A stretch of 64,000 bases of DNA, taken from the NCBI GenBank assembly GCA_964421565.1, contig CAYQXJ010000014.1:20690-84689 (forward strand), given 5' to 3'. Of the stretch, positions 3,916-32,618 are shown piece after piece. Each line of letters opens with the position of its first letter. Position 1 is the stretch's first letter. The position numbers were made by a program, and so were the translations under genes. Below the pieces are notes generated by a model. It did no database searches. It saw only the letters and a program-made list of their open reading frames with translations, and had not been told where the DNA came from. This DNA is from an uncultured candidatus Brocadiaceae bacterium. GTDB taxonomy: Bacteria > Planctomycetota > Brocadiia > SM23-32.

Positions 3916-6900
3916 ATGGAACATCGCAGCTTCTCGAAAGTTCGCCGGGCCGTCGACATCCCCGACCTGACGAGCATTCAGAAGGACTCCTACCGAGAGT
4001 TTCTCCAGCTCGATGTCGACCCCGCCAAGCGGGAAAGCATCGGACTGCAGCGGATCCTGGAGGAGACCTTCCCGATTGAGAACGAGGCCAAGGGCATCCG
4101 GGTCGACTACATCGAATACCGGTTCGGCAAGCCCCGCTATATGCCGGAGCAATGCCTGCAGCTACGGCTCACCTATGGGCGCCCCTTCTACATCCGTGTG
4201 CGCCTGCACAAAGCGGACGAGGTGCTCGAAGAAGACGTCTACATGGGCGAGATGCCCATCATGCTCGGGGGCGGCGAGTTCATCATCAACGGCGCCGAGC
4301 GCGTCATCGTCACCCAGCTTCACCGCTCGCCCGGGTGCGACTTCTCGAGCGAGACCGCCGGCGACCGCGTGCTCCACTCCTGCCGCATCATCCCCCAGCG
4401 CGGCAGTTGGATCACGATGGAGGTGAACCGGCGCGCGTACCTGACCTGCAGCCTGGACCAGAGCGGCAAGATACCCGTCACCCTGGTGCTGCGTGCCCTG
4501 AGCGAGCAGCACGACAGCGATGCCGACGTGCTGAAGCTCTTCTACGACGTGGAGAAGGTGAAGTTCACCGAGGGCACCGCCGGCGCCAAGTTGCGCGAAC
4601 GCGTCAGTGCCCAGACCATCTACGCCGACGAGGAAGAGGAGCTGGCGATCGTCAGCGCGGGTGAGCAGATCACCGAAGAGAGCGCCCAGCAGCTCGCCCA
4701 GGCCGGCGTCAGCACACTGGAGGTGCTGCCCGAGGAATACGACCCCCTGATGCTCAACACCCTGCGCGAAGACCGCAGCCACGACCATGCCTCCGCCATT
4801 CGCGAACTCTACGGCAAGCTGCGCCCCGGCACCCCCTTCACGTTCGAGAAAGCCCGCCAGACCATTTGGGAGAAGTTCTACGATCCGAACCGCTACCAGC
4901 TCGGCGAGGTCGGCCGGTTCCGCATGAATCGCAAGTTCGGCGAGAACGTGCCGCTGGAGCAGCAGACCCTGCGGCCGGAAGACTTCATCAACGCCGTGCG
5001 CTACATCGTCCTGCTGCGCGAAGGGCGGGGCCAGGTGGACGACATCGACCACCTGGGCAACCGCCGCGTGCGCACCATCGGCGAGCTGGCGACCGACCAG
5101 CTCCGGCGCGGTTTTCTGAAGATGCAGCGCACCGTGCAGGACCGCATCAACCTGAAAGACCCCGAGAAGTTCACCCCCCGCAACCTGATCAACAGCAAAA
5201 CGGTCAGCGCCAGCATCAACTACTTCTTCGGCCGCAGTGAACTGTCCCAGATCGTCGACCAGCACAACCCGCTCAGCCAGCTCACCAACGAGCGTCGGCT
5301 CAGTGCGCTCGGCCCCGGGGGGCTTAACCGCAAGCGGGCGGGCTTCGACGTGCGCGACGTGCACATCAGCCACTACGGGCGCATCTGCCCCATCGAAACG
5401 CCCGAAGGCACGAACATTGGGCTGATCACCAGCCTCGGGCTGTATGCCGGCGTGGACGAGTTCGGTTTCCTGGTCTCGCCCTACCGGGTTGTGCGCGACG
5501 GCGAGGTGACCGACGAGATCCACTACCTGCGGGCGGACGAGGAGGAGGAGATCTTCATCGCCCCGGCCGACGCCGAGCTGGGCGAGCTGCAGCCGGACGA
5601 TGCGATCATCGTGCGCTACGGCGGCGACCTGGCCGAAGTGCGCGTGGCTGACGTGCAGTACGCCGACGTCTCGCCACAACAGATCGTGGGCGTCAGCGCC
5701 AGCCTGATACCCTTCCTGGAGCACAGTGACGCCAACCGCGCGCTGATGGGCTCCAACATGCAGCGCCAGGCCGTGCCGCTGCTGAAGACCGAACCCCCGC
5801 TGGTGGCGACCGGCACCGAGCGGGCCGTCGCGCGCAACTCCGGCATGGTGGTGGTAGCGGAGGCGCACGGCGAGGTGACCCACGTCGACAGCGCCAGGAT
5901 CGTCGTGGACGACAAGATATACCGGCTGAAGAAGTTCGTCGGACTCAACCAGAAGACCTGCCTGAACCAGCGGCCCGTGGTGGAAGTGGGCGACAAGGTA
6001 AAGGCGGGCGACGTGCTGGCCGACGGCGCCTCCACCAGTGAGGGCGAGCTGGCACTCGGGCGCAACGCCCTGGTCGCCTTCATGCCGTGGGAGGGCTACA
6101 ACTTCGAGGACGCCATACTGATCAGCGAGGAGCTGCTCAAGGAGGATGCCTACACCTCCGTCCACATCGAGATGTTCGAGGTGGAGATCCGGGAGACGAA
6201 GCTCGGCAAGGAGGAGTTCACCCGCGACATACCCAACGTCTCCGAGCAGCAGTTGCGCAACCTGGACGAGCACGGCGTGATCCGCGAGGGCACGTGGGTG
6301 CAGTCCGGCGACATCCTGGTCGGCAAGGTCGCCCCCAAGAGCCGCAGTGAACTGACCCCCGAGGAGAAGCTGCTCTACGCCATCTTCGGCAAGGCGGGCG
6401 AAGACGTGCGCAACGACTCGCTCACCGCCCCCAGCGGCGTGGAGGGCGTGGTGGTCAGAACGGAGCAGTTCAGCCGCCGTTCCTACCTGAGCGAGGAGGA
6501 GCAGGCCGAACTGGACACCCAGATCGAGGAGGTTAGCGAGCACTACAACAGCCAGATCATCGGCCTGTTCAAAGAAGCGCTCGAAGCCATCCGCAATGAG
6601 CTGGACGGTCCCGTGGTGGACGTGCGCAGCGGCCGCGTCTTCGAGGCCAGCGGTGACCTCGATGCCGAAGCAATCCTGGATATGGAGGACGATTTCCAGC
6701 TCAGTTCGGTGGACTTCGGCGGCGCCCGCATCAACAGCAAAGTGCGCAAGGTCTACGCACCGTACGCTGACAAGATTGAGCAGCTCAAGCACGAGCGCGA
6801 TCGCAAACTGCTGCAGTACCAAAGCGGCGACGAACTGCCGAGTGGCGTGCTGGAAATGGTCAAGGTCTACGTCGCCACCAAGCACAAGCTGTCGGTGGGC

Positions 6901-7584
6901 GACAAGATGGCCGGCCGGCACGGCAACAAGGGCGTGATCGCGAAGATATTGCCGGTTGAGGACATGCCCTTTTTGGAGGAGGGAACGCCGGTCGACATCG
7001 TGCTCAACCCCCTCGGCGTGCCGAGCCGTATGAACGTGGGGCAGATACTGGAGACGCACCTGGGCTGGGCTGCACGGACGCTCGGTTTCCAGGCCGTCAC
7101 CCCCGTCTTCGACGGTGCCACGGAGGAGGAGATCCGCGAGTGCCTGACAGACGCCGGACTGCCTCAGGACGGCAAGACCATCCTCTACGACGGGCGCACG
7201 GGCGAGCCGTTCGACCAGAAGGTCACCGTCGGCTACATGTACATGATGAAGCTCGACCACCTGGTCGACGAGAAGGTGCACGCCCGGGCCACCGGCCCCT
7301 ACTCACTGATCACGCAGCAGCCCCTCGGCGGCAAGGCCCGTTACGGCGGCCAGCGCTTCGGCGAGATGGAGGTCTGGGCGCTCGAGGCCTACGGCGCCGC
7401 GCACATCCTGCAGGAATTGCTCACCGTCAAGAGCGACGACATCGAAGGACGCACCAAGATATACGAGTCCATGGTCAAGGGGGAGAACCTGCTCGAGCCG
7501 GGCATCCCGGTCGCGTTCGAGGTCCTCTGCAACGAGATACGCGGACTGGGGCTGAACATCCGCCTCGAGAAAGAAACCCTCTGA
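3916..7584 (+). CDS. rpoB: DNA-directed RNA polymerase subunit beta
   Basis: [41 protein letters not shown]; start set to ATG 3916, which follows GGAG. Confidence 0.99.
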
Positions 7585-19816: not shown

Positions 19817-20833
19817 TCATCCCGTGAGCCCTTGCAGGAACTGCAGCACGCAGCGGCCCAGGCCCTCCCGATCGTAGCCACCTTCCTGCACGACAAGGGT
19901 GGGCAGGCCGAGCCCGGCCACCATCTGCGCCATGCGTGCGAACCCGTCGGGTTCGATCTGGAACGTCCCGAGCCGGTCGTCGGCTCCGGTATCGGTGCCG
20001 AGGGACACGACCAGTTGGGCCGGTGCGTAATCGCAGATGGACTGCACGGCCCGTTCGAGCGCTTCCAGGTAAAGGGCCTCGTCGGCGTCGAGGGGCAGCG
20101 GCAGGTTCAGGTTGCAGCCCTCGCCCTCGCCGGCTCCGCGCTCATGCGTCCAGCCCCAGTGGTAGGGATAGGCCAGGTTGGGGTCGGCGTGCAGGGAAGC
20201 GTAGAGCACGTCGCCGCGCTCGTAGAGAATGTCCTGCGTGCCGTTGCCGTGGTGATAGTCGAGGTCGAGGACGGCCGCGCTGCCGCCCGGCGAAAGCCGG
20301 TCAGCGGCGAGGGCGGCGTTATTCAGGTAGCAGTAGCCGCCGCAGTAATCGCGCCCGGCGTGATGGCCGGGCGGACGGCACAGGGAGTATGCGCTCCGCT
20401 CGCCGTCCAGCAGCATCTCGGCGCCGGTCAGTGCGCAGGCGGCGGCAGCCCGCGCCGCCCGCCAGGTTCCGGCGACGATCGGGGTCTCGGAATCGAAGCA
20501 GTACCATCCCGAGAGGCGGGACATTTCGCGGGAGCGGCCGCGAACCCGTCGCAGAGGAAAGACATCGGCGATTACCCCCGAGGTCGGGCGGCGTGCCTCC
20601 ACCCACGCCGGGTACGCGCCGGCCAGCCAGGCCAGGTAATCGGGGCAGTGAACGGCGCCGAGCATGGCATCATCGCAAACGTGGGGCTCCACCACAGCGA
20701 AGCCCGCCTCGCGCAGCTTCTTCAGGATGGTCAGCGCCCGCGCCGGCTGCTCGGCGTACGGCACCTGTCGCCCCCGTGCGAAGCCGTAGGCCGGATCGTG
20801 AAGGCGGTGCGCATCGGAGTAGACAGCCTTCAT
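19817..20833 (-). CDS. Histone-deacetylase family protein (acetylpolyamine amidohydrolase-like)
   Basis: RPPGHHA, GGYCYLNNAA, DLDYHHGNGTQ, QEGGY; start MKAVYS overlaps the upstream stop codon. Confidence 0.9.
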   Translation of the reverse strand: MKAVYSDAHRLHDPAYGFARGRQVPYAEQPARALTILKKLREAGFAVVEPHVCDDAMLGAVHCPDYLAWLAGAYPAWVEARRPTSGVIADVFPLRRVRGRSREMSRLSGWYCFDSETPIVAGTWRAARAAAACALTGAEMLLDGERSAYSLCRPPGHHAGRDYCGGYCYLNNAALAADRLSPGGSAAVLDLDYHHGNGTQDILYERGDVLYASLHADPNLAYPYHWGWTHERGAGEGEGCNLNLPLPLDADEALYLEALERAVQSICDYAPAQLVVSLGTDTGADDRLGTFQIEPDGFARMAQMVAGLGLPTLVVQEGGYDREGLGRCVLQFLQGLTG

Positions 20834-22834: not shown

Positions 22835-23839
22835 CTAACCTTTTAAGGCGACGTCACGCATGGCGATGTAGTTCTCCTGCGGCACGTATGCGGGGATACT
22901 GTTCCCGGAGCCGAGGGCATAGCCTCCCCGTCCTTCGGTGCGTTCGAGCATGGCCCGGCAGCGCTCCTTGATCCGCTCGGGCGTGGAGCGGCAGAGGAAG
23001 TCCACGTCGATGCCGCCCAGGATGGCGATGCGCTTTCCCCACTGTTCGTAGGCCTGCTCCACCGGCAAGATCTGGTCTTCGTAGCTGTGCTTGCCGTCGT
23101 AGCCGATTGTGTCGATTACGTCGTCCATCACCCCCGCCAGGTTGCCGCACGAGTGCAATACGGCGGGTTTGCCCGCGGCGTGGATGGCGGCGACGATGCG
23201 CTGATGCCAGGGAATCACCCAGCGGCGCATCTGTTCGGGGCGCAGCATCGTCTGCGTTTTGAAGCCCCAGTCGTCATTGCCCATCAGGGCGCCGACCGTA
23301 TCGTAGCCGGCGCAGAGTTCGTAGTAACGAACGAGCCGGCTGCCGATGGCCTCGAAGATCTCGTCCACCAGTTCGGGCTCGTCGAGGCTCAGATAGCAGA
23401 GCCGTTCATAGCCCACGAGGCCGACCGCGTTCTCCAGCACGCCGCCGGGCCCCCAGACGGTCAGCTTCATCCCTTCCGGCAGGGGGGACTGGGCCAGGGC
23501 AGAGTAGTCGCACGCGTCGGGCTCGGGCCATGCGTAGGCCTCGAAGCTCTCACGATCGGTGATCAGAGCTCCCTGGTTCATGGAGACGGTGGATTCCTTG
23601 GCCCGCTCACCTTTGGGGAAGGCGAAACCGCCGGCGTGGCAGAGCATGTAGTCGTAGCCCAGGTTGCGCCAGGCCAGCAGCAGGTAACGGCTCCGGGGGC
23701 CGCTCCAGTCTTCCGGCACGCCGGGTTCGGCGAACCGCTTGATCAGCTCGCCGTTGACGGGCAGTTCGAACAGCACGGGGTGGTCGGGCTCGTCGCCGCC
23801 CAGCACGCGGACCAACTGGCTGAAATCGGGAGCGCGCAT
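22835..23839 (-). CDS. Uroporphyrinogen decarboxylase/MtaA-CmuA-like family protein
   Basis: GNDDWGFK, LHSCGN, LGGIDVD, GSGNSIP. Confidence 0.85.
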   Translation of the reverse strand: MRAPDFSQLVRVLGGDEPDHPVLFELPVNGELIKRFAEPGVPEDWSGPRSRYLLLAWRNLGYDYMLCHAGGFAFPKGERAKESTVSMNQGALITDRESFEAYAWPEPDACDYSALAQSPLPEGMKLTVWGPGGVLENAVGLVGYERLCYLSLDEPELVDEIFEAIGSRLVRYYELCAGYDTVGALMGNDDWGFKTQTMLRPEQMRRWVIPWHQRIVAAIHAAGKPAVLHSCGNLAGVMDDVIDTIGYDGKHSYEDQILPVEQAYEQWGKRIAILGGIDVDFLCRSTPERIKERCRAMLERTEGRGGYALGSGNSIPAYVPQENYIAMRDVALKG

Positions 23840-23997
23840 GGCTTCTCCACTGACAGTGCAACGGGAAGCGCCCACGTTACAGCGGGCTGCGCCACTGCGC
23901 AACCGCAGCGACGGGCACTGGAGGGCGCGGCCCGCCTGCGGTACACTGTGTGCGTCCGGAATCCCCGCACTCCGCGCTTTCCTTAGAGGAGCCTGCA

Positions 23998-25434
23998 ATG
24001 CGCATCCCCGTCTCCGCCGCACTCATCACCCTCTTTCTCTTGTCGGTGTCAGCCATGGCCCAGCAGAACCCCGCCCGCGACCTTCCGCGCCCCGAACCGC
24101 CGGCGAACTCCGATCAGCTCGGCGCAGGCATCCAGCGGCCCATGACCCTTATGGCCACCAGCACGCCAGAGCGACGCAACACGGTCAAGGTGCTCTACTA
24201 CGGCCAGTCGATCACCAACCAGCAGTGGACCGACCAGGTCAGCGAACACCTCCGGCAGACGTATTCCCACGCCGACCTGCAGTTCGAGAAGCTCTCCCTG
24301 GGCGGCTTCGCCAGCCAGAGGCTGGTGCGCACCACGGATTACGACGTACTGCCGTACTACCCGGACCTGCTGGTCTTCCACGTTTTGGGCGACCACCGGC
24401 GCTACGAGGATATCATCATCAAGGTCCGCCAGAAGACCACCGCCCAGATCGCCATCTGGAATGATCACATAACCCGCCTGCCGACGTCGCCCGACGATTG
24501 GAGCGAGCAGATGTCCTACAAGTTCATACCGAGCTACGCCGAACGCTACGGCTGTTACCTGATGGATATCCGCACGCCGTGGAAGGAGTACCTGCTGAAG
24601 CATGGCTTCGAGCCGAAGAAGTTCCTGCGCGACGGCGTGCACTTGAACGACAACGGCAACTGGCTTCTGGCGACCCTCATCAACGACCGTCTGCTTTACA
24701 ACCCCAAGCTGCCCCGTGACTGGCAGGACCTGGTGCGCGACTATGCTGTCGGCGAAGATGTCGAGTGGCAGGACGGCCGGCTGAAGCTGGAGTTCACGGG
24801 CAACCGTGTCGATGTCGTCAGCGCGTGGACAGGGGGGGGCGAGCCCGGGCATGCGAAGGTGCTTATCGACGGCAAGGCCCCCAGTGAGCATCCGGAAGTC
24901 TACTACCACGCACGCCCGACGGGCACACCCCACATCGGATGGCCAGCCATCAAGCGTATCGGCCACCGCGTACCGCTGCTGCAGGAGCAATGGACGGCGA
25001 GAGTCTGGGGCTTCAACGAGGATGCCACGGATTTCCAGTTCGAGGTCACCGGTTCGGTTACTGGCCCGGACGGGCGTGGGCGCGGTGCCGAGACCTTCGT
25101 CTCGGAGTCCGGCCGGGTCGTGATCGAGCCGCAGGACTGGACCTACGACTACGATTGGAGCCTGGCTCAGCGACGCAATGATGCGCCACGTCTGCCGCAG
25201 GAGCATGTCGTCCGGTGGCAGACCAGGGCGATAGCTGAGGACACCTACGCGCCGGAGAAGGTCGAAGACCCCTCCATGACATACGCCACGGTGCTCGCGC
25301 AAGGACTCCAGAACGCGCGGCACACGCTGGAGCTGCTGAGCAGTTTTGGAGGGCCGATGCCGATCGGCGCAATCCGCGTCTACGAGCCGCCTCTGAAGCA
25401 GGTCGAACCGCTTCACGGCCAGCCCGTGCAGTAG
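23998..25434 (+). CDS. Secreted SGNH/GDSL-like hydrolase
   Basis: Signal peptide ending AMA-QQ; YGQSIT block I and DGVHLN block V; beta-rich C-terminal extension. Confidence 0.72.
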   Translation: MRIPVSAALITLFLLSVSAMAQQNPARDLPRPEPPANSDQLGAGIQRPMTLMATSTPERRNTVKVLYYGQSITNQQWTDQVSEHLRQTYSHADLQFEKLSLGGFASQRLVRTTDYDVLPYYPDLLVFHVLGDHRRYEDIIIKVRQKTTAQIAIWNDHITRLPTSPDDWSEQMSYKFIPSYAERYGCYLMDIRTPWKEYLLKHGFEPKKFLRDGVHLNDNGNWLLATLINDRLLYNPKLPRDWQDLVRDYAVGEDVEWQDGRLKLEFTGNRVDVVSAWTGGGEPGHAKVLIDGKAPSEHPEVYYHARPTGTPHIGWPAIKRIGHRVPLLQEQWTARVWGFNEDATDFQFEVTGSVTGPDGRGRGAETFVSESGRVVIEPQDWTYDYDWSLAQRRNDAPRLPQEHVVRWQTRAIAEDTYAPEKVEDPSMTYATVLAQGLQNARHTLELLSSFGGPMPIGAIRVYEPPLKQVEPLHGQPVQ

Positions 25435-25452: not shown

Positions 25453-26451
25453 ATGCTTCGCGGGTGTTACCGGCTCTGGGCTCTCGCCATTTTGACGGTT
25501 CTGGCCGGCTGCACGGCGCAGCCGGTCGGAACAATGCGCAGAAGTGGAGCGACGGCAGTGGAACGCATTGACTTCCATGGATGGCGCGACTGCTACCGGT
25601 TGAGCAACGGCGAGGCGGAGGTGGTCTTCGTGCCGCAGGTGGCGCGCATCATGCGCTATGCGCCTGCGGGTGGCGAAAACGTGCTGTGGGTGAACCCCCA
25701 GACGACGCCCGATGCAGTCGGCAACGGCGAGCCGCCGCACGTCGGCGGCTGGGTGAACTACGGCGGCTACAAGCTATGGCCGGCCCCGCAGCAGCGCTGG
25801 GGATGGCCTCCGCCGAGCGCACTGGACAGCGGACAGTGCACGCTCGAGGTCGAAGAGGGGGCGCTCCACGTGAGAGGCCAGGTCGACGAACACATCGGGA
25901 TCCGCTTCGACCGCGTCATCCGGCTCGCGCCGCAGGGCACACGGGTTGACCTGCAGCAGAAGATGGTGAACGTCTCGGCTGAGCCGGTCACGTGGGCCGT
26001 CTGGGACGTAACGCAGATCCCGTCGGCCTGCGTCGTATTCGTGCCACTTGCGCCCGGCTCGGACTATTACACACAGGAAGGCCTGCGCCTGAGCAACCAG
26101 TGGAGGCGGGTCGATTCGGTTCTGCTGTTGAGGCCGGAAGGGGAGCCGGAAAAGGTCTTTGTAAAGGGCGGGCCGGGCTGGCTCGGGGCGAAGGTATCGG
26201 GGCGCATATTCATCAAGATGTTCCGCCTCTCGCACATCAGCGCACCGGCGCCGGAGGCACCACGGGAAGTTTGGACCGGAGACACCGGCTACGTTGAGCT
26301 GGAGGTCGTCGGGCCACAGACGACGCTGATGCCGGGCGAGAGCGCAACGCTGGCGGAGACGTGGTTTCTGTGTTCGGCAGGCGCCGACGCGGAGACTGAC
26401 GGGCAGGTCGCGGCCGCCGCGCGCGCCTGCGCGCAGAAGGCGCACCGCTGA
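25453..26451 (+). CDS. Lipoprotein, DUF4380/galactose-mutarotase-like fold
   Basis: Lipobox LAGC; GW..CYRLSNG, NYGGYKLWPAPQ, WDVTQ, YVELEV. Confidence 0.7.
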   Translation: MLRGCYRLWALAILTVLAGCTAQPVGTMRRSGATAVERIDFHGWRDCYRLSNGEAEVVFVPQVARIMRYAPAGGENVLWVNPQTTPDAVGNGEPPHVGGWVNYGGYKLWPAPQQRWGWPPPSALDSGQCTLEVEEGALHVRGQVDEHIGIRFDRVIRLAPQGTRVDLQQKMVNVSAEPVTWAVWDVTQIPSACVVFVPLAPGSDYYTQEGLRLSNQWRRVDSVLLLRPEGEPEKVFVKGGPGWLGAKVSGRIFIKMFRLSHISAPAPEAPREVWTGDTGYVELEVVGPQTTLMPGESATLAETWFLCSAGADAETDGQVAAAARACAQKAHR

Positions 26452-26463
26452 GGCGCTGCTGCC

Positions 26464-26502
26464 AGGGGGTGGTGAGGCCTTACTAACGCGCCTCTACCCC
26501 CT
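26464..26502 (+). terminator. Imperfect hairpin downstream of the lipoprotein gene
   Basis: AGGGGGT/ACCCCCT and GAGGC/GCCTC stems; followed by TAAG only. Confidence 0.35.
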
Positions 26503-26551
26503 TAAGCGGGTGGGGCCCCATGTCCTGGCATAGGGAACTGGAACCGATTGA

Positions 26552-26766
26552 CTGACCCGCGCCGGCTGGTGGACCTCCGCCACCCTCGTGCCCGGCGAGC
26601 TGCGCGAGACCCTCACCGCCGAGGTCGTCCGGGAACACGTCCATGTTCGATTTGCTCTGCTACCGGCGCCTACTGGCGAGACAGGACCTGCCGGACAAAG
26701 CATGCGGGCGGCTCACGCGTGCCCTTCTGGCCGCAGTGCAGGCGCAGGTGCAGGCTGGCCGCATGA
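26552..26766 (+). pseudogene. Possible frameshifted gene remnant
   Basis: Protein-like helical text changes frame near 26640 (LVPGELRETLTAEVVREH, then MFDLLCYRRLLARQDLPDKACGRLTRALLAAVQAQV); no RBS and no complete ORF. Confidence 0.3.
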
Positions 26767-26865
26767 GATCGGCTGCCAAAGGGCTGAACGGCCGCGGCTG
26801 CGTAGAGGGCTGCGAACTCTCGCTGCCCCGGACCGCTCGGGCAGCGCGGCTTTGGGGTTTCGACC

Positions 26866-26914
26866 TTGACGTGCCGCCCCGAATAGGATAAAGTATCTAA
26901 ATATAAAGATACTT
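26866..26914 (+). promoter_or_regulatory. Sigma70 promoter with overlapping palindromic operator (probable ArsR site)
   Basis: TTGACG (26866-26871), 17 nt, TAAAGT (26889-26894); inverted repeat AAGTATCT-N8-AGATACTT (26891-26914) covers the -10 and the start site. Confidence 0.75.
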
Positions 26915-27046
26915 CGATGAAGCGGGCCGGTGGGGCGGTCCGACAGTCGAGGGGGCGAGGATATGCATCCCGGGGCAATCTGAGCAGAATCCGGCGGGGG
27001 GCCTCTGCCGGGAGCCAGCCATCACCAAGCGCGGGAGGAGTCGCGC

Positions 27047-27337
27047 ATGAGACCACAGGTCGAAGATGATGCTGCAATGTTCAAGGCGCTCTCCGATCCC
27101 CTGCGTCTGCGGCTTTTGAGCCTGCTGCCGACCAGCGGCGACAAGCGGGAGTTCTGCGTCTGCGATCTGGCCCGCAAGCTCGACGTCAGCCAGCCCTGCC
27201 TGTCGCACCATCTGAACATCCTCAAGAATGCGAGTCTGATCGGGTTTGAGAAAGACGGCTGCAGCACGTTCTACTACGTCGAAGATGATGAAATGCAGCA
27301 GAGACTGCGTGACTTTCAGAAGAGAATGAAACTGTGA
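27047..27337 (+). CDS. ArsR/SmtB-family transcriptional repressor
   Basis: FKALSDPLRLRLL, EFCVCDLA, SQP.LSHHL..LK; GGAGGAG RBS. Confidence 0.93.
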   Translation: MRPQVEDDAAMFKALSDPLRLRLLSLLPTSGDKREFCVCDLARKLDVSQPCLSHHLNILKNASLIGFEKDGCSTFYYVEDDEMQQRLRDFQKRMKL

Positions 27338-28365
27338 AGACGGCACTGATATACGACGAGATGACGCCCGACGGCCGGGCCGGCTGGGTGGAGGCCGAGT
27401 ATGAATCGCCCGAGACAATACAGGCGCTGCTGGACGCCATAGCGGAGCATTGCGATGAGGCGGTGGCGGTGCCTTTTGATGAGGGCCTCATCGGCCGGCT
27501 CCACATGGAACGTCCGGACCTGGCCTTCAACATCGCGGAAGGGCGCGCGGGGGCATCGCGCGAAACCATCGTCCCCTGCGTGCTGGAATACCTTCAGGTA
27601 CCTTACACCGGCTCGGACGGCGTTGCGCTGGGGGTGTCGCTGAATAAGGCGATGACCAAGCAGCTTGCCATGCGCGCGGGAGTGCCGACGCCGGAGTTCT
27701 CACTGTTCCGCGAGACGTGGCAGGTGGAGGAGGCAGCCGGAAGCCTGCCATATCCTGTGCTGGCCAAGCCCAACTACGGTGGCTCCAGCGTAGGCATTGA
27801 GCTGGACAGCGTGGTCGAGGGCCCGGACCGGCTGGTGCCCGTTGTGCAGGAGCACCTGCGCGTCTACGAGCAGCCCTGCCTGGTGGAGCGTTACGTGCGG
27901 GGGAGCGACGTGACGGTCGGGTTGCTCGGCAGTGAGCAGGGCGCGGGCATCGAGGTCCTCCCCGTTGGACGCATCGAAGCCCCCGACGGACTCTACTCCG
28001 CTCACGTTAAGCAGTCTCACGAGCGACGCGTCCTCTGCCCCTGCGACCTGCCCGAGGGCGTCGAGGAGCAGTTGATCGACTGGGCGCTGCGCGTTTACCG
28101 GGCGATTGGCGCACGCGACTTCGCGCGGGTGGACTTCATGGTCGACGAGGGCGGCGAGGCACACTTCCTGGAGATCAACCCCTTGCCCGGGCTGAGCCCC
28201 TTCTACGGGGTGTATCCTGTGCTGGCAACGGCTGCCGGTTACGACCACAGCGCCCTCATAGGCCGGATCATGGAGGTGGCAATGGACAGATACGCACGCA
28301 AAACGAGGAGCATGCAGCATGGACGACTGGCAACAGCAGTTGCGCAACAGCATCACAACTGTTGA
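27334..28365 (+). CDS. D-Ala-D-Ala-ligase-like ATP-grasp peptide ligase
   Basis: FNIAEG, PYTGSD, NKAMTK, KPNYGGSSVGI, ARVDF, LEINPLPGL; N-terminal AEYESPETI as seen in KamA-associated Ddl-like proteins; GTG start overlaps the ArsR stop. Confidence 0.88.
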   Translation: MKTALIYDEMTPDGRAGWVEAEYESPETIQALLDAIAEHCDEAVAVPFDEGLIGRLHMERPDLAFNIAEGRAGASRETIVPCVLEYLQVPYTGSDGVALGVSLNKAMTKQLAMRAGVPTPEFSLFRETWQVEEAAGSLPYPVLAKPNYGGSSVGIELDSVVEGPDRLVPVVQEHLRVYEQPCLVERYVRGSDVTVGLLGSEQGAGIEVLPVGRIEAPDGLYSAHVKQSHERRVLCPCDLPEGVEEQLIDWALRVYRAIGARDFARVDFMVDEGGEAHFLEINPLPGLSPFYGVYPVLATAAGYDHSALIGRIMEVAMDRYARKTRSMQHGRLATAVAQQHHNC

Positions 28366-29416
28366 GCAACTTGAGAGATACGTGAATCTGACGCCCGAAG
28401 AGCGCGAGGGGATAGCGCGCATTCAAGGCGTCTTCAACTGGGGCATTAGCCCTTACTACGCGTCGCTTATGGAACGCGACGATCCCCAATGCCCGGTGCG
28501 CCTGCAGGTGGTGCCGCGTATTCAGGAACGGCATGACGAGCTCGGCGTGTGGGACCCGCTCAAGGAAGAGGACCACAGCCCCGTCGAGAATCTGATCCAC
28601 GTCTATCCGGATCGCGTGGCGTTCTGCGTCAGCAGCGTCTGTGCCACGTTCTGCCGGTTCTGCCTGCGCAAGCGGATGGTGGATACGCGCGGTTCGGCCA
28701 TCACGGCGGCGAACTTCGAGGAAGGGCTCGACTACATCCGCGCGAACCCCGCCATACGCGACGTGCTGCTGACCGGCGGTGATCCACTGTTGATGGAGGA
28801 CGAGCGCGTTGAAGAGGTAGTGGCCAGGGTGCACGAGATACCGCATGTCGAGCTGGTGCGCATCGGCAGCCGCACGCCGTGTACACTGCCTATGCGGATC
28901 ACGGACGAACTGATGCGGCGCCTGAGCAAGTACCAGCCCTTCTGGATCAATACCCATTTCAACCACCCGAAAGAGCTGACCGAGGAGGCTGTAGCAGCCT
29001 GCGGACGCATCGTCGACGCCGGCATCCCCATGGGCAACCAGACCGTCTTCATGGCGGGCATCAACGACGACACTGAGGTGCTGAAGGAACTCGGCGAACG
29101 GCTGGTCGCGGCGCGCGTCAGGCCTTACTACCTCTACCAGTGCCAGGTGCTCAAGGGAACGGCCCATTTCCGTGTGCCGATTGAGCAGGGCATACGTATC
29201 GTGCGGGGGCTGCGGGGGCGCACCAGCGGATTCGCCATCCCGCAGTACGTCCTCGACACGCCTTACGGTAAAGTGCCGCTCAATTATGACTACTTGAAGG
29301 GGCGCGACGGGGAAGACATGGTCATGGAAACCTTCTCGGGCAAGATCTGGCGCGAGCCAAACTCCCTGCGCAGGTGTGCAACATGTCAGGCGGATCCGAA
29401 CCTCGTCTCATCCTAA
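28319..29416 (+). CDS. KamA-family radical SAM/PLP 2,3-aminomutase
   Basis: DWQQQLRN, DPL.E, HVYPDR, CATFCRFC, LLTGGDPL, RIGSRTP, NTHFNHPKE, PYYLYQC, GKVP (PLP lysine). Confidence 0.93.
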   Translation: MDDWQQQLRNSITTVEQLERYVNLTPEEREGIARIQGVFNWGISPYYASLMERDDPQCPVRLQVVPRIQERHDELGVWDPLKEEDHSPVENLIHVYPDRVAFCVSSVCATFCRFCLRKRMVDTRGSAITAANFEEGLDYIRANPAIRDVLLTGGDPLLMEDERVEEVVARVHEIPHVELVRIGSRTPCTLPMRITDELMRRLSKYQPFWINTHFNHPKELTEEAVAACGRIVDAGIPMGNQTVFMAGINDDTEVLKELGERLVAARVRPYYLYQCQVLKGTAHFRVPIEQGIRIVRGLRGRTSGFAIPQYVLDTPYGKVPLNYDYLKGRDGEDMVMETFSGKIWREPNSLRRCATCQADPNLVSS

Positions 29417-31224
29417 TCTGCCTCGGCAACCCCGGGCCCGAATACGCAGGCACCCGTCACAACGCGGGTTTCCTGTTCGCCGACTGGTTGCGTGAGCGAC
29501 AGGGCTTCGGCGACTACCGTCAGCTCGACGGAGCCGAGGCGCGGGTATCCGAAGGCAACATTGTGGGCCTGCCCGCCATGCTGGTGAAGCCCATGACCAG
29601 CATGAATGAGTCGGGACGGGTGATGGATGCCCTTGCGGAGCGGTACGATCCCGACGAGCACCTGTACGCCATCGCGCACGACGATCTGGACGTTGCCGTC
29701 GGCAGCGTGAAGGGCCGGGCCAAGGGCGGCCACGCAGGGCACAACGGTGTGCGCTCTATCCTGGAGGCTGCCGGGCGCAGAGACATCGTCCGCATCAAGC
29801 TTGGGGTCAACAGCACCGCCCGACGCGGCTATGACGGGCCAGTCGAGTTCCTGCTCAGCGACTTCGACGCCGGCGACCGCCAGGAGCTTGAGCAGGCTTT
29901 CCCCGACGCGGAACAGGTGCTGGTGGGGCAGGTGAAGTCCTTCCTCGCGAGCCTCGACAGGCGAGACGGGCGACGGCAGGCTGCCGAAGCGTACGAACGC
30001 GATGTCCTGGTGGGGGCGCGCGAGGCTCTGGTAGAGGTTCCGGCGGCGTCGCCGTGGCCCGTCCTGCTGGAAGGCAAGGACATGGCGCGAGTCTTCGACG
30101 TGGTCTCGGTGCTTGCCAAGCTGCTGCGCAAAGCGCGCGTGGCCGCTGCGGAGAACGACGTGTTCTACGCGCGGCTGGCCTCTTGCATCCCAGAACACCT
30201 GCGCGCCCTGCTGGCGGGGCGGCGAAGGACCCAGCGGGTGTTCTTTGCCGTGGATCTGCATGTCTCAGAGCAGGGCATCAAGGTCATCGAGCTGAACTGC
30301 GCCGTGGGCTACGGGCACTACGCAGCCGTGGCGGACGAAGCCCTCTGGGCGCTCGTGCAGGACGTGCCCGGCCCGCTGCGCCGGCCGAACGACGAGCAGT
30401 TCGCCCCCTTCCTCCTTGAGAACGGCCTCCTGCCGCTTCACGATCCGGCGGGCGGCTGCATCGCCTTCCTGCGCGGCTTCGGCGGGGAGGATATGTTTAA
30501 CGTGGACGAGTTGGGGGGCGTGGTGGCGCGCATCGCCAAATCCGGAGGTCCGTCAATGCCCCTCTGTGACGAGGGCGAACTGGAACTGCGGGATGATGGC
30601 CTGCATCTGCCTGATGGAGGGCGGATCGACTTGCTGTACGTCGAGGAGAACCTGGCCGAGTGGCCCGCTGATCCCGCCGACTCTGCGGTGCGGCGGGCTG
30701 TTGAGTGCGGGCTCGTCAGAACTTTCCCGCCGCTCGATATGTTCCTGTTCACAAGCAAGGCTTTCCTCGCCGCCCTGCTGGACCCGGACCTGCGGCGGTA
30801 CTTCGATCCCGACGATGAGGAGAGCAAGGTCCTGCGCGAGAACGTGCTCTGGTCCCAACGGCTTGATGCACACATCGAGCCGGCAGCTTACTACATGCTG
30901 GAGCAGGGGCTGCCCCTCGTCGTCAAGGATGCATTGGGAGGCGGTGGGCGCGGAGTGACCATCCTGCGCCCCGACTCCGCAGGCCAGCAGGCGGGGCACA
31001 TCCTGCGGCGCCGCATGCTGGAGGGAGGTAGCGTCGTGCAGGGCTACTTCGCGCCGGGGCGATGGCGAGAGGGCAGCGACCTGCGCTTCGACGTGCGCGT
31101 CCTCTGCGCAGCGCACGAGGGCGACATCCGCATCGGTCCCGTCTACGGCAGGACTTTCCGCAGCGACAAGCTGTCCTTGAATGAGCCCGATGCCGGCGTC
31201 GCGCCAGTGTACGTGCTGGACTGA
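29383..31224 (+). CDS. Fusion of peptidyl-tRNA hydrolase (N-terminal) and circularly permuted/GspS-type ATP-grasp ligase (C-terminal)
   Basis: Pth motifs: LGNPG..Y..TRHNAGF, KP.T.MN.SG, HDDLD, GHNG.RSI. ATP-grasp motifs: D......GIKVIELN, SKAFLA.L.D, LVVK...GGGGRGV, VVQ, DVR. One continuous frame; start set to ATG 29383. Confidence 0.85.
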   Translation: MSGGSEPRLILICLGNPGPEYAGTRHNAGFLFADWLRERQGFGDYRQLDGAEARVSEGNIVGLPAMLVKPMTSMNESGRVMDALAERYDPDEHLYAIAHDDLDVAVGSVKGRAKGGHAGHNGVRSILEAAGRRDIVRIKLGVNSTARRGYDGPVEFLLSDFDAGDRQELEQAFPDAEQVLVGQVKSFLASLDRRDGRRQAAEAYERDVLVGAREALVEVPAASPWPVLLEGKDMARVFDVVSVLAKLLRKARVAAAENDVFYARLASCIPEHLRALLAGRRRTQRVFFAVDLHVSEQGIKVIELNCAVGYGHYAAVADEALWALVQDVPGPLRRPNDEQFAPFLLENGLLPLHDPAGGCIAFLRGFGGEDMFNVDELGGVVARIAKSGGPSMPLCDEGELELRDDGLHLPDGGRIDLLYVEENLAEWPADPADSAVRRAVECGLVRTFPPLDMFLFTSKAFLAALLDPDLRRYFDPDDEESKVLRENVLWSQRLDAHIEPAAYYMLEQGLPLVVKDALGGGGRGVTILRPDSAGQQAGHILRRRMLEGGSVVQGYFAPGRWREGSDLRFDVRVLCAAHEGDIRIGPVYGRTFRSDKLSLNEPDAGVAPVYVLD

Positions 31225-31229
31225 GCTGC

Positions 31230-32618
31230 TCAGAGGGCCGCCGCGATCCGCCCGCGCAGCCGGCGCATGAGAGGCAGGTGTTCCGCCCGGGCGGCCAGGT
31301 TTGTGGTCTCGCCCGGGTCCACGTTCAGATCGTAGAGCTCGTGTTCCCCGAGGGGGCTGCAGGTAAAGCGCCAGCCCTGTGCCGTGACGAGCGTGCGCAC
31401 AGGGTCCGACCACGACTCGAGGATCTGTTCCTTCGTGGCATCCGGCAGCTCGACGTTGGGGCTGTAGCCGTTTGAGCCGTTCCACTCGATGACGATATCC
31501 TGGTCGAGTTCCGTGACAGTACCCTCCGCGGCTTGGCGCAGGCTCTTGCCTTCCAGCGCTTCGGGGACTGGCTGGCGCATCACGTCGAGCAGCGTGGGCA
31601 CGAGGTCGATCTGGCTGATCGGCCCGCTGACCCGGTGCCCTTCCCGTTGGCCAGGCACGCGCACCAGCAGAGGCACCCGCACCGACTCCTGGTACATGAC
31701 CGTCTTTGCTACCATGCCGTGACTGCCCATCATGTCGCCGTGGTCGCTGGTATAGACCACGACGGTATTGTCGGCGAGGCCGAGCTCCTCCAGCACGTCC
31801 ATGATGCGGCCGAAGTAAGTATCGACCTGGCTGCAGAGGCCCCAGTAGCGCGCTATGAGCCGGCGGAAATCTTGCTCGGACTGGAAGCGGTTGTGCCACT
31901 TGGCATGGCCGGCCCGCAGCCGTAGCGGCTGGTCCGCTCCGGGCACGGCTTCGAAGTTGTCCGGCAGGGGTATACTTTCGGGTTCGTACTGATCGTCGCG
32001 CGGCCCGGTGAACGGCATGTGCGGCTCCAGGAAATTGACGAACAGCACGAAAGGGTTGTCATGGTTCTTGCGCAGGAAGCGGGTGGCTTCCCGGGCGAGG
32101 TAGGCCGGCTTGCTGTATTCTTCGGGCAGTTTTGCCGCCTGGCTACGGTTGAAGAAGTCGCCCTCGGGCGCCTCCAATCCCTGCTCGCGGAGCCAGCGCT
32201 GATAGTGCGACAGCTCGTCGCGCGGCTTGCCCGGACGGTAGTACGGGCGATACATGTCCTCTATGGCACGCCATTCCGAAAACCCGTGCTGCGGGAATAT
32301 CTCGTCCCCCAGGTGCCACTTGCCGTGATGGGCGCACGTGTAGTTGCCCTCGGTCAGCATCTCCGGCAGGCACGGGGTGTCCGGTGAGAGCGGGACGTTG
32401 TTCGCTATGCAGCCGTTCGTGTGCGGATAGAGGCCGGTAAGCAGTGACGAGCGGGACGGCGTGCAGACCGGCTGAGTAACGTAGGCTTCCTCGAACACCG
32501 TGGCAGTCTCCGCGAAGCGGTTCAGGTTAGGCATCTCGATGTGTGTATTGCCGTAGGCTGCCATGGTGTCGTAGCGTTGCTCGTCGGTGTAGATGAACAG
32601 CAGGTTGGGTGCGGGCAT
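31230..32618 (-). CDS. Sulfatase (Cys/FGly type)
   Basis: PNLLFIYTDEQR, CTPSRSSLLTG, GKWHLG, SDHG, ELYDL..DP.E; no signal peptide. Confidence 0.93.
   Translation of the reverse strand: MPAPNLLFIYTDEQRYDTMAAYGNTHIEMPNLNRFAETATVFEEAYVTQPVCTPSRSSLLTGLYPHTNGCIANNVPLSPDTPCLPEMLTEGNYTCAHHGKWHLGDEIFPQHGFSEWRAIEDMYRPYYRPGKPRDELSHYQRWLREQGLEAPEGDFFNRSQAAKLPEEYSKPAYLAREATRFLRKNHDNPFVLFVNFLEPHMPFTGPRDDQYEPESIPLPDNFEAVPGADQPLRLRAGHAKWHNRFQSEQDFRRLIARYWGLCSQVDTYFGRIMDVLEELGLADNTVVVYTSDHGDMMGSHGMVAKTVMYQESVRVPLLVRVPGQREGHRVSGPISQIDLVPTLLDVMRQPVPEALEGKSLRQAAEGTVTELDQDIVIEWNGSNGYSPNVELPDATKEQILESWSDPVRTLVTAQGWRFTCSPLGEHELYDLNVDPGETTNLAARAEHLPLMRRLRGRIAAAL

Follow-up and report, generated by a model that had tools for sequence, protein, structure and literature searches.

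The 64,000-nucleotide stretch of DNA analysed here, which we refer to as the window, comprises positions 20,690 to 84,689 of contig CAYQXJ010000014.1 from an uncultured candidatus Brocadiaceae bacterium of the phylum Planctomycetota (assembly GCA_964421565.1; 3.48 Mb, 91% complete). It carries an operon of four genes that encode an ArsR/SmtB-family repressor, a Ddl-like ligase of the ATP-grasp kind, a KamA-family 2,3-aminomutase, and a protein in which a peptidyl-tRNA hydrolase (Pth) domain is fused to a second ligase domain (Table 1). An original prediction, made by inspection of the DNA letters and their translations, had described four overlapping genes behind one promoter and operator, and this arrangement, on the plus strand, is borne out by open reading frame (ORF) calls and family scans; with first-start calling, successive ORFs overlap by 4, 47 and 43 nucleotides. 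The G+C content of the region is 0.62–0.68 throughout with no break in composition, ORFs on the opposite strand within the operon have no Pfam match, and terminator-like sites inside it occur at chance frequency (2 seen, 2.2 expected). A scan of positions 26400–31400 against Rfam (E up to 1) gave no match, so it shows no T-box or riboswitch. The operon stretch was recovered from DNA runs of microbial-mat metagenomes only.

Table 1. Features of the operon and its control region in window coordinates.
Feature	Position	Strand	Size	Remarks
Sigma-70-like promoter, TTGACG-17-TAAAGT	26866..26894	+		Sole promoter-like site in 26300-31500 (0.8 expected)
AT-rich operator box including palindrome, then CGATGA	26891..26921	+		Overlaps both the -10 hexamer and the presumed start of transcription
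ArsR/SmtB-family repressor gene	27047..27337	+	96 aa
Ddl-like ATP-grasp ligase gene	27334..28365	+	343 aa	First ligase
KamA-family 2,3-aminomutase gene	28319..29416	+	365 aa	Radical S-adenosylmethionine/pyridoxal phosphate (PLP) enzyme, non-lysine type
Pth-ligase fusion gene	29374..31224	+	616 aa
Pth domain of fusion	29374..29970	+		Residues 1-199
Circularly permuted ATP-grasp ligase domain of fusion	29971..31224	+	417 aa	Residues 200-616; second ligase

The last gene of the operon sets a putative ligase behind an enzyme of tRNA recycling. Pth is a housekeeping esterase that recycles tRNAs; its substrates are N-blocked aminoacyl-tRNA and peptidyl-tRNA esters, and its products are N-blocked acids. 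Residues 13–182 of the fusion protein match TIGR00447 with 134.4 bits (cut-off 100), and the domain matches mycobacterial Pth with an E-value of 1e-32. The residues of the Pth motifs GNPG, RHN, MNxSG, HDD and GHNG have catalytic roles, and the RIKLGV basic residues are presumed to contact tRNA, as in E. coli Pth. The fused domain has GNPG, TRHN, MNESG, HDDLD, GHNG and RIKLGV intact in the window and in 10 of 10 orthologous fusions; with none of these signature motifs lost in any of the 11 fusions, the domain looks active as judged from its sequence. It is as conserved across loci (53–63% identity) as the ligase domain that follows it (55–65%). A separate housekeeping pth gene lies on another contig of the genome, and its product is 37% identical to the fused domain. 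The predicted fusion of Pth with an ATP-grasp thus stands for the window and for 10 of 11 loci, with the correction that one close relative has no Pth part. This relative is G008, the window's nearest neighbor on the RpoB tree described below, in which the KamA and ligase-domain matches are about 40 nucleotides apart (L025:2581-3843); its genome has a single pth gene.

The remaining two-thirds of the fusion protein (residues 200–616) stay below threshold for every Pfam and NCBIfam model; the sole sub-threshold Pfam hint is R2K_3 (E 0.009), and PF03738, PF04174 and PF14403 do not match the window protein at their cut-offs. Folding of the whole fusion from a single sequence was unusable (pLDDT 36), and an AlphaFold2 model of the ligase domain built on an alignment of 29 rows reached a pLDDT of 92.7 and a pTM of 0.92. 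Its best structural matches are YjfC (Z 29.0), YgiC (Z 28.1) and the synthetase domain of GspS (Z 27.7), and glutathione and homoglutathione synthetases match at Z 27–28. In all, 26 entries of the circularly permuted ATP-grasp class are matched at Z 22–29, and the next fold class comes at Z 12 (VIA-align). Foldseek places the model in the same class (E 3e-14, probability 1.00), and the ESM Atlas returned unnamed clusters and one GSP_synth cluster only. All 29 rows have the same residues at D95, E107, N109, K263, K319 and R394 (numbered within the domain), and a GGGGRG loop is present; by analogy, these residues may take part in Mg-ATP binding. By its modelled fold the domain is a circularly permuted ATP-grasp of the GspS/YgiC/glutathione-synthetase type, and so the earlier claim of an ATP-grasp in the last gene holds at the level of fold and is corrected as to class, which is not the classical one. 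Known ligases of this type act on N-blocked peptides, whose C-terminal carboxylate they activate. When the Pth and ligase domains were modelled as separate chains the complex score was 0.00, which carries no weight either way.

Relatives of the ligase domain are rare. An exhaustive HMMER search of 1.84 billion representative proteins returned 22 at E<=0.001 and 5 at E<=1e-10. Four of the relatives (P0005, P0007, P0008 and P0009; 620–821 aa, 21–28% identity) also have an N-terminal Pth, in which the catalytic His and Asp pair is kept, the first Asn is lost and the GHNG Asn is partly lost. Since an N-terminal Pth is found in relatives this distant, the fusion appears to be old and no recent accident of one lineage. 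Other distant relatives are standalone proteins of about 400 aa, and some reach the CP_ATPgrasp or GSP_synth models; P0014 and P0018–P0020 lie at or near the cut-offs of PF03738, PF04174 or PF14403. The four distant fusions are found in Logan assemblies alone, where their contigs span 4.7–29.5 kb. A search with a three-row alignment found no related loci for them in genome or metagenome contigs, and P0006, a standalone homologue, had no match in metagenome contigs.

Closer to the window, the domain is nearly confined to one family and the operon is kept there as a unit. The ligase domain was found in 13 of 41 sampled relatives, all in the window's family (12 of the 24 family genomes sampled had it, and none of the 16 from the class's other families), and in 17 of the 31 genomes of this Planctomycetota family. 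A sample of 401 genomes across the phylum gave three matches, one of which is the window's own; the remaining matches, at E of about 1e-7 and 1e-6, are weak ones to ordinary CP_ATPgrasp_2 proteins. At 11 of 11 related loci the genes for ArsR, the Ddl-like ligase, KamA and the ligase domain have the same order and strand, with identities of 51–69%, 57–63%, 76–83% and 55–65%, respectively, and the Pth part is present at 10 of the 11. Conserved co-occurrence of the four genes, which the original prediction had named as the thing to look for, is thus what we find, and its description of the operon as a unit separate from the flanking genes agrees with an order that is kept at all 11 loci while the flanks vary.

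The control region is conserved along with the genes. For 11 operon copies (the window's and those of 10 other loci) the sequences upstream of the genes were aligned. A -35 hexamer TTGAC[AG] is present in 10 of them and TTGCAC in the other, a TAnAAT-like -10 hexamer is aligned in all 11, and the operator box is kept in all 11 as ATC-AAATAT-GAATACTTCGATGA; its AT-rich consensus, ATCTAAATATAAGAATACTTCGATGA, holds in every copy although the host genomes are about 65% G+C. The leader of 110–180 nucleotides that follows the box is not conserved in these 11 regions. In the window the box contains a perfect 8-N8-8 palindrome, AAGTATCT-N8-AGATACTT, at 26891–26914. A genome-wide search for this palindrome with up to three mismatches gave a single match, and the reversed control pattern gave three per strand. 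Directly after the box (window 26915–26921) stands (C/G)GATGA, which is conserved in the 10 other loci. The reading frames opened by its ATG encode non-conserved peptides, with no conserved small ORF, and this motif probably belongs to the operator and transcription-start region rather than to a leader peptide.

The repressor itself is recognized by NF033788 (79.4 bits, cut-off 55) and by HTH_5 (48.6 bits), and it presumably binds the operator box. Because the palindrome occurs nowhere else in the assembly, this protein is most likely a dedicated local autoregulator. All 12 orthologues have two of its cysteines, one within SQPCLSHH and one within DGCS; 11 of the 12 have that of xVCxL, and seven have the full CVC, which is present in the window copy. 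The CVC motif of ArsR As(III) sensors lies in the helix before the recognition helix, and a thiol-based or metal(loid) signal for the operon's repressor is plausible. Membership in a known defence system was also considered and was rejected, as PADLOC gave only generic helix-turn-helix matches for the ArsR protein.

The aminomutase belongs to the KamA family, whose enzymes make beta-amino acids. It matches TIGR00238 with 314.3 bits (cut-off 199.2) and the solved lysine 2,3-aminomutase 2A5H over residues 2–357 with an E-value of 3e-112, and in 12 of 12 operon copies the motifs CATFCRFC (CxxxCxxC) and GK(V)P align with the cluster cysteines and the PLP lysine, Lys337, of that enzyme. The family assignment made earlier is therefore sound, and we refine it in that the protein is not of the lysine type. 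It falls below the equivalog cut-offs for the lysine (TIGR03820; 416.5 vs 525.4 bits), glutamate (403.8 vs 650), arginine (402.2 vs 600) and EpmB (237.2 vs 369.3) enzymes. In addition, Gln replaces Asp293 of 2A5H in 12 of 12 operon copies and the Asp330 position is still Asp; we take these two aspartates of 2A5H to bind the side-chain amine of lysine. The 120 best KamA relatives in a collection of 5.8 billion proteins (P0025–P0144) all have Gln and Asp at the 293 and 330 positions, so the Gln-type proteins are a large subclass of aminomutases. One Gln-type relative is labelled Candidatus Poribacteria, so that the subclass reaches beyond the Planctomycetota.

The first ligase matches PF07478 (120.5 bits, cut-off 24) and is about 30% identical to solved Ddl enzymes (E 8e-34 and weaker). 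It does not pass as the cell-wall Ddl of this genome: it is under all of the NCBIfam Ddl cut-offs (best NF002378, 172.4 bits vs 243), and a separate ddl gene elsewhere in the genome outscores it on PF07478 (161.3 vs 122.1 bits).

Comparison across the phylum indicates that the aminomutase and the Ddl-like ligase are accompanied by different partners in different lineages. Among the 31 family genomes, the same 17 that have the ligase domain, and no others, have a KamA 77–83% identical to that of the window (version A). Nine other family genomes have a KamA of 56–60% identity (version B), and in nine of nine a soluble protein of about 305 aa that matches PF09924 (LPG_synthase_C; 146 bits, cut-off 27.5) is encoded directly downstream of it. 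Pfam describes PF09924 as the phosphatidylglycerol lysyltransferase C-terminal domain, and proteins with the MprF C-terminal domain move an aminoacyl group from tRNA. The only solved sequence relative of the version-B protein is 2hqy, a hypothetical protein, and a search of the window's genome found no PF09924 protein of this kind there. The Ddl-like gene lies directly upstream of KamA at three of the four version-B loci examined, and at the fourth a URO-D/MtaA-like gene stands in its place (L031:3805-4770). This MtaA/CmuA-like gene resembles the URO-D/MtaA-like gene that flanks the operon in the window, possibly by coincidence. A more distant PF09924/DUF2156 paralogue, 32–36% identical to the version-B protein, is encoded at other loci in 13 family genomes (for example, G009:C10:26666-27511 and G011:C30:31993-32784); its hosts include genomes with either version and with neither, two of them also have the version-B gene, and the window's genome is not among them.

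No family genome has both versions and five have neither; four of these five are 64–85% complete, and the fifth (G010, 96%) has only the third version described next. In an RpoB tree that takes in every family genome except G019, which gave no locus (30 of 31), a clade of 16 version-A genomes and four with neither version is separated from a clade of nine version-B genomes and one with neither, with support of 100 each. The KamA proteins of versions A and B have Gln at the Asp293 and Asp at the Asp330 position in 16 of 16 sequences (motifs YQCQ and LDTPYGK). The third version (version C) is more widespread: KamA matches of at most 51% identity are present in 102 of the 401 phylum genomes. Among the best 20 KamA loci in the phylum, 14 have two Ddl-like genes, one has one, and five have none, one of them being cut by a contig end (loci with two are L043, L045, L046, L048, L049, L052–L054 and L056–L061; also L035 and L036). 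Version-C KamA proteins have Asp at both positions, as in the lysine type; 18 of 20 match YQCD and two are unmatched by this pattern. The first Ddl-like protein of these loci is 32–37% identical to that of the window, the second ligase is also Ddl-like and has no Pth, and no ArsR match was seen at the 20 best KamA loci. We conclude that the aminomutase and the Ddl-like ligase are a constant core, and that the variable slot is that of the second ligase, filled by a Ddl-like protein, a PF09924 protein or the fusion. The original prediction had called KamA next to Ddl-like ligases a recognized gene neighborhood, and it is indeed widespread in the phylum, with at least one Ddl-like gene at 15 of the 20 best KamA loci.

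From this gene content, the folds and motifs, the conservation of the unit with its promoter and operator, and the MprF-C-like protein that takes the fusion's place in the sister clade, we infer what the operon might do; the chemical steps, the use of tRNA, the signal and the product given here are all of this kind. The reading that we favor, tentatively and at somewhat less than an even chance, is a pathway to a beta-amino-acid peptide in which the second coupling passes through an N-acyl-aminoacyl-tRNA that is released by the fused Pth. The dedicated, ArsR-repressed operon would build a small peptide or conjugate containing a beta-amino acid in three steps. The KamA-family enzyme would shift the alpha-amino group of an amino acid to the beta carbon, and because of its family and of the Gln at the lysine-binding position the substrate is expected not to be lysine. 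The Ddl-like ligase, if it acts as its family does, would then make a first amide bond by way of an acyl phosphate. Lastly, the ATP-grasp domain of the fusion would phosphorylate the intermediate at its free carboxylate, attack there by the alpha-amine of an aminoacyl-tRNA would give an N-acyl-aminoacyl-tRNA, and the fused Pth would hydrolyse the ester, freeing the extended peptide and recycling the tRNA. The reverse order can also be envisaged, in which a peptidyl carboxylate, once freed from tRNA by Pth, would be re-activated by the ATP-grasp and joined to an amine; the fusion would then be a two-step equivalent of peptidyl transferase.

A chemical precedent is provided by the PEARLs (peptide aminoacyl-tRNA ligases), whose mechanism comprises phosphorylation of a C-terminal carboxylate at an ATP-grasp-like site, condensation with the amine of an aminoacyl-tRNA, and removal of the tRNA by hydrolysis (PMC11962472). 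We favor a PEARL-like route because of this precedent, because the GspS-type fold points to carboxylate activation, and because Pth and PF09924 each suggest a link to tRNA. The PF09924 protein that takes the fusion's slot in the sister clade would be a second, independent link of this sort, and from it the idea of a tRNA intermediate gains support: two of the three second-ligase solutions include a domain with relatives that act on the ester of an amino acid or peptide with tRNA. A more specific form of the proposal is that the fusion is a new two-domain peptide ligase, tRNA-dependent and ribosome-independent, that has converged with the PEARLs and works on a beta-amino-acid intermediate, while the sister clade uses an MprF-like transferase; this we regard as possible and rather doubtful. 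The earlier interpretation, a compact system that makes a beta-amino acid, ligates it in up to two steps and involves a tRNA-bound intermediate or tRNA rescue, is on the whole partly supported, and those of its points that are computationally checkable hold.

Several observations weigh against a PEARL-like route. We know of no ATP-grasp enzyme that uses aminoacyl-tRNA as a nucleophile. There is no tRNA gene or aminoacyl-tRNA synthetase paralogue in or beside the operon, and the 11 orthologous loci have no tRNA genes; the sole tRNA gene of the window, a tRNA-Trp (CCA) at 238–314, is unrelated and lies 26 kb from the operon. Since G008 lacks the Pth part and the distant homologues P0006 and P0010 are standalone, this part is dispensable or can be replaced in trans. 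As to the sister clade, the two versions map to two clean RpoB clades, so that their exchange is a single event and not repeated evidence of equivalence; use of aminoacyl-tRNA by the PF09924 protein is suggested by its family membership; and the residue added by such a protein would go onto an amine, that added by the PEARL-like route onto a carboxylate, so the two products may differ.

The absence of an associated tRNA or synthetase gene would be natural if the pathway made no use of tRNA, with both ATP-grasps joining free acids and amines and the fused Pth serving as a co-expressed safeguard, an added dose of tRNA rescue against the N-blocked or abnormal (beta-)aminoacyl- and peptidyl-tRNAs that accumulate when the beta-amino acid, or a peptide made from it, disturbs charging or translation. 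A fully canonical Pth domain, present as an extra copy that would be expressed only with the operon, fits such a role, as do the close relative and the standalone distant homologues that have no Pth. A safeguard requires no fusion, yet the fusion is kept at 10 of 11 close loci and in four relatives at 21–28% identity, and an aminoacyl-tRNA-family transferase in the same slot of the sister clade is left unexplained; we consider this explanation unlikely. The fusion's layout raises a different idea, that Pth was recruited to a non-tRNA ester or to undo the product of the ligase, in a make-and-break cycle of a stress metabolite modelled on GspS/amidase. In that enzyme and in trypanothione synthetase-amidase, too, a hydrolase of about 195 residues stands N-terminal to a ligase of the same fold, the invariant ArsR cysteines suggest a redox or metal(loid) signal, and GshB (PF02955) and GCS2 (PF04107) were not found in the genome, which at 91% completeness is a hint only. 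A changed substrate should leave marks on the Pth motifs, however, and these are unchanged in the close fusions, including the RIKLGV basic residues; moreover, Pth is an esterase and ligases of the GspS class make amides. We judge such a recruitment improbable.

The same can be said of modification of a macromolecule, be it a protein (in the style of RimK, LysX or tubulin ligases), EF-P (elongation factor P) by a reaction like its beta-lysylation, or a cell-wall precursor, in which case a tie to translation would account for the Pth part. Protein-modifying ATP-grasp ligases are among the distant structural matches of the ligase domain, KamA relatives serve EF-P modification (the KamA protein has 237 bits on the EpmB model, under the cut-off of 369), and the operon encodes no exporter. 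The matches in question are at Z of about 8, compared with Z 27–29 for the closest folds, which are small-molecule ligases. There is no conserved target or carrier gene beside the operon, the genome has no protein that passes the EpmA cut-off, the operon's KamA is of a non-lysine type, and control by a repressor argues against constitutive modification of a translation factor.

The genes around the operon are of other kinds and differ between loci. Upstream in the window are DUF4380, GDSL-like and URO-D-like genes, and downstream are two convergent sulfatase genes; five queries with flank proteins (DUF4380, GDSL-like, the two sulfatases; the URO-D-like protein was not queried) found no match in the 11 orthologous loci. 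The URO-D/MtaA-like gene (22835–24022, minus strand; PF01208, 77 bits) is 3 kb upstream of the operon. Neighbors shared among the loci are a convergent GFO/IDH/MocA oxidoreductase gene at 5 of 11 and an upstream FAD oxidoreductase gene at 3 of 11, and we judge both to be local synteny. The window also contains rpoB (3919–7566; G000:C14:24608-28255), and in G011 rpoB and the operon likewise share a contig, some 45 kb apart.

If the reading that we favor is true, a Pth fused to an amide ligase in a biosynthetic operon would give Pth a metabolite-making role, and it would be a simple new architecture among the ways in which charged tRNAs are diverted into non-ribosomal peptide bonds. The known routes of this type are the Fem/MprF-type transferases, the cyclodipeptide synthases and the PEARLs. 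The three interchangeable second ligases around a common core are a natural experiment for a pathway found in many uncultured Planctomycetota, and the self-contained unit of three enzymes is easy to express and test. The earlier statement that no cluster with this combination had been described agrees with our literature search, which did not cover supplements and turned up neither a Pth/ATP-grasp fusion nor this gene cluster. The parts of the operon are known kinds of enzymes; as far as could be seen, what is new is the fusion, the three-way swap of second ligases and the KamA class of the Gln type.

Each of these parts can be compared with a known system. The operon's KamA has the cluster and PLP residues in common with lysine 2,3-aminomutase 2A5H, and differs in having Gln where that enzyme has Asp293. 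The version-C cluster likewise has one aminomutase and two ligases, but its KamA is of the lysine type and it has no Pth; its product seems to be undescribed. Housekeeping Pth1 and the fused Pth have all motifs in common, and the fused copy is an extra one. CRS2, a plant splicing factor that was also matched in the PDB, differs from the fused Pth, which keeps the catalytic motifs. GspS/amidase and trypanothione synthetase-amidase combine hydrolase and ligase functions in separate domains of one chain. These two, YgiC/YjfC and eukaryotic-type glutathione synthetase have folds like that of the fusion's ligase domain (342–394 residues aligned, root-mean-square deviation 3.2–3.6), with sequence identity of only 12–15% for the GspS-class enzymes. 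In E. coli GspS/amidase a hydrolase of 195 residues precedes the ligase, which is aligned over chain residues 212–618; the N-terminal hydrolase there is a CHAP amidase, whereas in the window's fusion it is Pth. The PF09924/DUF2156 proteins occupy the same operon slot as the fusion in the sister clade and have an unrelated fold. GNAT-fold aminoacyl-tRNA transferases such as VlmA, PacB, DhpH and Orf11 act in small-molecule pathways, where they pass aminoacyl groups from tRNA on to small acceptors (reviewed in PMC12945691). The PEARLs are LanB-like and act with a scaffold peptide, and in the operon the Pfam and NCBIfam scans find no LanB-type family and there is no scaffold-peptide gene. By analogy, the chemistry proposed for the fusion would nonetheless be like that of the PEARLs, on folds that are non-homologous to theirs and with the hydrolysis carried out by the protein's own fused Pth.

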